From IMG/VR virus record IMGVR_UViG_2585427728_000004: DNA of 11,946 bases. One strand, 5' to 3'. The stretch comes from a virus. Its lineage: Duplodnaviria; Heunggongvirae; Uroviricota; Caudoviricetes. Under the pieces are notes generated by a model, which worked only from the letters and a program-made list of their open reading frames with translations, made no database searches and was not told the origin of the DNA. Every line of letters begins with the position of its first letter. Within the stretch, counting starts at the first letter, position 1. Shown here piece after piece: positions 6,810 through 7,338 of this stretch. The position numbers and the translations under genes are program-made.

Positions 6810-7338
6810 TGTTCTATCCCCCAGCAGGTTAATGCACTCTCCTGGTCACGACGAATAACCTGACCGTAACAATTATTTGAACGAATGCGGCAATCACGTC
6901 CACCGTCCTTTATCCACCAGCGAATCGCCTCGCATGCGCCTTTACGATCACCGGCATTAAGCCGCTTATAAAACGTCGACGGAAAACACTTACCAGGGCC
7001 AATGTTATAGGGACAGAATGACGCGATACCGGCTTTCTGTGGCTCGGTCAGTGGAACTTTTATATTGCGCTCCACCCATGCCAGCGCCTTATCACGCTCA
7101 ATGGCGTTGACCTGGTCGCATTTTTCCTTCGACAGTTTCATATTGGGAAAAACGGTTTTCCATCCACCACTGTGGCACCCCGACAGATGGTCCATATGCC
7201 AGAACCATCGCGGTATGCCATTGTGTGGTTACCTTCTTTTTCGTCCAGAAACTGGTCAAGTATCTGAGGAGCAGATGCGCCAGCACCAATCAGCGCCAGA
7301 ACGGCAGCCGACAGGCCGTATCTGATTTTTGTGTTCAT
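6806..7338 (-). pseudogene. rrrQ: SAR endolysin (lambda R / phage 21 R21-like lysozyme) disrupted by a frameshift near 7140-7160
   Basis: N-terminal ORF 7138..7338 (MNTKIRYGLSAAVLALIGAGASAPQILDQFLDEKEGNHTMAYRDGSGIWTICRGATVVDGKPFFPI*) holds the SAR helix and catalytic-region motif. The rest of the lysozyme (MKLSKEKCDQVNAIERDKALAWVERNIKVPLTEPQKAGIASFCPYNIGPGKCF...) continues in another frame within ORF 6806..7195. Confidence 0.75.

Follow-up and report, generated by a model that had tools for sequence, protein, structure and literature searches.

A one-base frameshift in the endolysin gene rrrQ of a Qin-like cryptic prophage remnant, best read as neutral decay

The lysis cassette and its broken gene

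The window, by which we mean the whole stretch of 11,946 nucleotides that was analysed, carries on its minus strand a lysis cassette in which the endolysin gene, rrrQ, is split in two. The cassette, the parts of the split gene and the late antiterminator gene are listed here from upstream to downstream.

11009-11401, minus strand: Q-family late antiterminator (Pfam PF06530, 171 bits).
7651-7866, minus strand: essD/essQ-type pinholin, 71 aa, dual start MKSM, intact (Pfam PF04971, 'Bacteriophage P21 holin S', 117.6 bits).
7335-7646, minus strand: ydfR (DUF1327), 103 aa, intact, with one SNP at 7501 relative to L003 and other 99.9%-identical cassettes.
6806-7338, minus strand: rrrQ pseudogene, 533 nt vs 534 nt in intact alleles; a GH24 phage lysozyme of the SAR-endolysin type.
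7138-7338, minus strand: ORF of the N-terminal fragment, 66 aa, with a basic N-terminus (K4/R6), a SAR-like stretch at residues 7-27, E35/D44/T50, the tail PFFPI and a TGA stop.
7156-7159, minus strand: site of the 1-bp deletion, T4 on the plus strand vs T5 in intact alleles (A5 to A4 on the coding strand).
7138-7141, minus strand: ATGA overlap, in which the premature TGA (7138-7140) shares bases with the Met67 ATG (7139-7141) of the C-terminal ORF.
6806-7141, minus strand: ORF of the C-terminal fragment, 111 aa (native residues 67-177); it encodes the C-lobe of the lysozyme and lacks a signal or SAR sequence as well as the catalytic triad.
6312-6809, minus strand: rzpQ (Rz-type i-spanin, DUF2514), GTG start, intact.
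6362-6616, minus strand: rzoQ (Rz1-type o-spanin lipoprotein, lipobox LTSC), inside rzpQ in another frame, intact.

A first-pass annotation had described the holin, ydfR and Rz/Rz1 genes as intact and translationally coupled, and the junctions bear this out. Only 4 nt separate the essD stop from the ydfR start, with GGAGAG shortly before it, ydfR and rrrQ meet in an ATGA overlap at 7335-7338, rrrQ and rzpQ meet in a GTGA overlap at 6806-6809, and rzoQ lies within rzpQ. The protein accession of essD is identical to that in genomes with an intact rrrQ. The MKSM at its start (7855-7866, minus strand) is the two-methionine arrangement of the phage 21 holin/antiholin pair S71/S68, and the essD ORF stays open further upstream, to an ATG at 7950. 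The SNP in ydfR is an A on the plus strand at 7501 where other cassettes have G, and apart from the deletion it is all that separates the window from the common cassette sequence; 234 contigs are recorded with the variant protein, WP_032291405.1.

A terminator scan found, on the minus strand, two hairpins that resemble terminators and have T tails. One, at 10887-10910, lies just downstream of Q and is a candidate late-promoter-proximal terminator, and the other, at 7967-7988, lies between an AraC-type gene and essD. Expression of the lysis genes would need readthrough of both by Q-modified polymerase.

The position of the lost base

The same annotation claimed that a one-base deletion splits a phage-21-type SAR endolysin, and the deletion is there: the ORF at 7138-7338 stops at a TGA, and the rest of the gene is open in another frame. 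The N-terminal ORF translates as MNTKIRYG...ATVVDGKPFFPI*, which is 61 native residues followed by the out-of-frame PFFPI and the TGA at 7138-7140. The C-terminal ORF reads MKLSKEKCDQVN...WGIEQ* from the ATG at 7139-7141 and ends at 6806. The overlap of stop and start as ATGA was also read correctly, and automated gene calls in related contigs put the start of the 111-aa ORF at this internal ATG. When one A is inserted, the result is a 534-nt ORF whose product has the 177 aa that had been expected of the intact enzyme and is 100% identical to RrrQ of K-12 (LYSQ_ECOLI).

The base itself had been placed wrongly. It was said to be missing from a CCGTTTTTCCC (T) run, but it is missing from the neighbouring A5 run, GGA AAA ACC (G60 K61 T62). 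The coding strand has GGAAAACC in the window and GGAAAAACC in the intact alleles, within the wider context of GGAAAACCGTTTTTCCC in the window and GGAAAAACCGTTTTTCCC in the intact alleles. The intact alleles compared were those of L003 (strain 13C1079T), L011 (GCA_946061485.1) and phage Tritos (L016). The intact junction that had been given, ..DGKPVIPGMKLSKEKC.. (DGKPVIPGM), is not that of this gene; in the repaired protein the junction is ..VVDGKTVFPNMKLSKEKC...

Identity of the encoded endolysin

The repaired 177-aa protein matches Pfam PF00959 (Phage_lysozyme) at 84.5 bits. The lesion splits this match in two, leaving 17.9 bits on the N-terminal fragment, which is below the curated cutoff of 22.3 bits, and 54 bits on the C-terminal fragment over profile positions 34-125. 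The lysozyme triad motif has been described as E-X8-D/C-X5-T (PMC9239132, PMC4640515), and RrrQ has E-X8-D-X5-T as E35/D44/T50, where EGNHTMAYRDGSGIWT begins at residue 35 and aligns with the triad region of R21. A GH24 enzyme requires both lobes on one unbroken polypeptide, and the window allele breaks it; what the window carries is a GH24-family pseudogene and no functional member of the family.

SAR endolysins are expected to begin with two to three basic residues and a weakly hydrophobic, uncharged segment rich in Gly, Ala and Ser, and the definitive test of one is its release by a pinholin (PMC9239132). In RrrQ, K4 and R6 are followed by the uncharged, weakly hydrophobic residues 7-27, YGLSAAVLALIGAGASAPQIL, of which 11/21 are G, A or S and which align to the SAR region of R21. 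The pinholin gene, essD, sits two genes upstream of rrrQ in the same coupled operon. Judged by its sequence, RrrQ is related to R21 and credible as a SAR endolysin; its Sec-dependent export, membrane tethering and release by a pinholin upon depolarisation are predicted from these features.

The label "R21-type" was half right. RrrQ is related to R21 (phmmer E = 2e-16, about 1e-16 for R21/RrrD), but the gene is the RrrQ of Qin-type prophages and no copy of R21. The characterised SAR endolysins R of phage 21 (R21, PDB 3HDE/3HDF) and RrrD of DLP12 (PDB 4ZPU) can be aligned with RrrQ over residues 9-174, N-terminal anchor included. They share its E35/D44/T50 numbering, and both are paired with an S21-family pinholin, yet RrrQ is a distant relative of the two and no ortholog. 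The SAR segment of RrrQ has no Cys, so a disulfide control of the P1-Lyz type is unlikely.

One of the closest known systems is the Qin prophage of K-12, whose RrrQ (YdfQ, LYSQ_ECOLI) is the protein that the repaired gene encodes. The two loci share the pinholin, ydfR, rzpQ/rzoQ, cspI, ynfN, gnsB and the position near ydfI, and the window locus is flanked by ydfZ, ydfI, rspB, cspI, ynfN and gnsB. K-12 MG1655 matches a 61-bp probe across the lesion with one gap; relative to K-12 Qin, the window rrrQ is one A short and is a pseudogene.

Deposited lambdoid phage genomes carry the same enzyme. The endolysins of Tritos, HannyBb and PhiR42_1 are 100% identical to the repaired protein and that of mEp460 is 93% identical. 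Tritos has the same order of S, ydfR, endolysin, Rz (DUF2514), cspI, ynfN and gnsB, with about 94% DNA identity over 3 kb. All four are complete phage genomes in which the 534-nt gene is unbroken, unlike in the window. Between Q and the holin, the window has an AraC-type regulator, a YbgA-like gene and a lipocalin, whereas Tritos has cspB there.

A real allele in one clone

The missing A lies in a short homopolymer, a classic error spot on some platforms, and the first-pass annotation had worried that the true genome might read A5 and hold an intact gene. That worry can be set aside. Two complete chromosomes contain the window without a single difference: ET881 (frog faeces, Guangdong, China) and SW071610 (wastewater, Galapagos), which come from different laboratories and countries. 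Around the locus their sequences agree at every base for 14.7 kb. In 44 kb of flanking chromosome, 6 SNPs, 2 indels and one TnAs1 insertion set them apart, so they are separate isolates of one clone. The TnAs1 element splits dgcZ in SW071610 (L009 6096-11513). In ET881, the cassette has matches at 3 places in the genome.

Many independently sequenced drafts and metagenomes carry the allele too. A contig index lists the exact 66-aa fragment in 222 blocks, and 97 contigs are recorded as having it; among the sources are older NCBI drafts (E. coli 8-415-05_S1_C1/C2), one metagenome from JGI, one from the human gut and a Logan assembly. All contigs that were read have the same gene context, with 0-1 SNP from the window, and they always belong to the same clone. 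In the draft GCA_037636305.1, an IS-family transposase has inserted itself between the AraC-type gene and essD (L015 679-1383).

When the 61-bp probe across the site was searched against complete E. coli genomes, 1790 matched, and the site reads A4 in 2/1790 and A5 in about 1788. The A5 reading in about 1788 other complete genomes speaks against a systematic miscall; the close relative L011 also gives A5. A sequencing artefact is effectively excluded, and an assembly error that dropped a base from an intact gene is extremely unlikely.

At least 28 other genomes match the window throughout the 1.7-kb cassette except for the A deletion and the one ydfR SNP. With so little other divergence, and with A4 in only 2/1790 genomes, the lesion is young and arose once. 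New independent frameshift alleles were not found among those of the truncated cluster members (P0002-P0045) that were inspected, which are contig-end partials of the normal sequence.

The prophage remnant and the order of its decay

The prophage is a Qin-like cryptic remnant of roughly 11 kb, between rspB and ydfI. Its deletion scars begin at the first base of the window.

1-3339, minus strand: deletion scars (RefSeq), comprising the host gene ydfI, which has lost its N-terminus (1-1335), part of a tail-protein gene (1436-1955) and a terminase large subunit without its C-terminus (1948-3339).

The terminase abuts the tail-protein fragment and reads on as a 494-aa junction ORF (1855-3339); this ORF, recorded on 121 contigs, is a marker of the clone and of a sister lineage. 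At the other end, just outside the window, an integrase without its N-terminus adjoins a shortened DUF968 gene. The window stretch 11404-11946 ends exactly at the start codon of this DUF968 (ydfU-like) gene, which encodes 180 aa vs about 350 aa in relatives. By the RefSeq annotation, repressor, replication, portal, head and tail genes are gone from the remnant, with the tail-protein fragment as what is left. The remnant is more deleted than those of the relatives examined.

The sister lineage gives the order of events. The draft contig L011, collinear with window 1-8825 with 4 SNPs, shares the junction ORF and the deletion scars but reads A5 and has an rrrQ of 177 aa. Because L011 shares the scars but keeps an intact rrrQ, the large deletions are older than the frameshift, and therefore the endolysin gene broke in a prophage that was already unable to make virions. 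Among 5,426 complete genomes, none has the same remnant with an intact rrrQ, and collinearity with the window is limited to the two frameshift genomes. The 66-aa fragment, the junction ORF and the truncated DUF968 are on record on 97, 121 and 166 contigs, counts that may be uneven, as short and pseudogene ORFs are possibly called unevenly.

Three cargo-like genes lie between Q and the holin (8057-10853): an AraC-family regulator (8057-8779, minus strand), a YbgA-like DUF523/DUF1722 protein (9177-10136, minus strand) and a lipocalin (10329-10853, plus strand). GC drops to 0.31-0.35 around 8000-9400. An Rfam scan of the whole window found the cspA thermoregulator (111 bits, 5690-6095, minus strand), which covers the 5' leader of cspI and is followed by ymcF/ynfQ, ynfN and gnsB, and no other known RNA element.

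Consequences for function

Muralytic activity is almost certainly lost, to judge from how the lesion divides the protein: the triad and the SAR anchor are in the 66-aa fragment, and the C-lobe is in the other fragment, which has no export signal. The 66-aa product would keep the anchor and the three catalytic residues but would lack the C-lobe, which supplies the second wall of the active-site cleft. For the C-lobe (residues 67-177) to be made at all, ribosomes would have to terminate and reinitiate at the ATGA overlap, an inefficient process. The internal ATG has no Shine-Dalgarno motif in the 14 nt before it, and the nearest purine-rich tract ends 14 nt upstream. With the N-terminal fragment exported and the C-terminal fragment left behind, the inner membrane would separate the two, and an active lysozyme is not expected. 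The suggestion that the C-terminal part could be reinitiated as a separate polypeptide is possible in itself, but the product would be a cytoplasmic fragment without the catalytic residues.

The gene might still work in one of two ways. A -1 slip on CCG UUU UUC would give a full-length enzyme with T62P/V63F, and a tRNA-Phe that shifts by -1 from UUC to UUU in G UUU UUC would indeed restore the frame before the stop; alternatively, the ATGA overlap could permit reinitiation of the C-terminal fragment, and the fragments could complement each other non-covalently. We consider it extremely unlikely that either happens. G UUU UUC is no canonical X XXY YYZ heptamer, and the downstream RNA has no stable structure (z = -0.26 vs shuffles). 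The internal ATG lacks a Shine-Dalgarno motif, and the interrupted arrangement is unconserved and confined to one clone. Because the SAR export signal is on the N-terminal fragment only and the pieces would lie on opposite sides of the inner membrane, fragment complementation is topologically unlikely. Transcriptional slippage needs A/T runs longer than A5/T5.

Programmed or leaky -1 frameshifting on the U-run was considered as a candidate in its own right and rejected. Folding of 116 nt around and downstream of the run gave the z of -0.26 quoted above, and a programmed site would combine a canonical heptamer with a stimulatory element, conserved in homologs, none of which is found at this locus.

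The premature stop may also weaken translational coupling into rzpQ, although that gene has a GGGGGA tract of its own, 8 nt before the GTG. Triggering of a pinholin is lethal by itself (PMC9239132). As the pinholin here is intact, a cell that expresses the operon should still die, but without lysing.

Neutral decay or selection

What we are led to, with high confidence, is a genuine, vertically inherited loss-of-function frameshift of rrrQ in an already dead Qin-like remnant, best read as neutral decay. On this reading, an A was lost once from the A5 run (GGA AAA ACC to GGAAAACC) in a clone whose prophage had already been stripped, and the integrase N-terminus, the early region, and the portal, head and tail genes would all have gone before the frameshift. 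The lesion would then be a neutral step in the decay of a prophage that was already dead, and neither adaptive nor programmed. The neutrality of the A4 allele is inferred from its context and its rarity. The carrier clone is reasonably widespread (222 blocks in the contig index), so the allele is not strongly deleterious, and in principle it could be mildly beneficial.

The first-pass annotation had raised domestication or selection against lysis. On that account, loss of the endolysin was selected because it stops lysis when the cryptic late operon switches on, for example under SOS-inducing stress, while the rest of the cassette was kept. Such cassettes can indeed be transcribed in cryptic prophages: in K-12, enrofloxacin induces rrrQ 9-fold, and rrrQ and the holin about 9- to 18-fold (PMC12287860). 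The other four lysis genes are intact, and the carrier clone is found on several continents. Against this, the allele has a single origin and is present in 2/1790 complete genomes, and the sister lineage with the same remnant has an intact rrrQ. The intact pinholin, lethal on triggering (PMC9239132), should still kill the cell upon expression. In K-12, deletion of rrrQ gave no phenotype in peptidoglycan or vesicle assays, and deletion of the holin likewise left peptidoglycan integrity and vesicle production unchanged (PMC12287860); that paper is the only relevant one found on rrrQ/ydfQ, most other matches being peptide motifs. Nor do the intact neighbours count as evidence of selection, because the cassette is one SNP away from many genomes and its other genes have had little time to decay. 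Selection for disarmed lysis is therefore unsupported, and we think it very improbable.

More improbable again is that A4 acts as an adaptive 'safety catch', which turns explosive lysis into non-lytic death or survival in a clone whose cryptic late operon is still transcribed under stress, or that the 66-aa SAR peptide, once exported, or the C-lobe, if reinitiated, has taken on a separate role. The sole point in favour is that the allele persists in a geographically widespread clone.

The case resembles other frameshift pseudogenes of decaying cryptic prophages, being a single-base homopolymer indel in a prophage whose int, ydfU, terminase and tail fibre genes were already truncated, and it is not distinctive among them. 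The frameshift is ordinary and already known, RefSeq labelling rrrQ as 'lysozyme, frameshifted' in both complete genomes that contain the window, and as one more homopolymer decay in a cryptic prophage it matters little by itself. What it does offer is a dated order of decay, deletions first and the point lesion later, and a clean clonal marker in the combination of A4 at the site with the deletion scars. The 1-bp allele spares the pinholin and spanin genes and could serve as a natural rrrQ knock-out in studies of stress-induced cryptic lysis cassettes.
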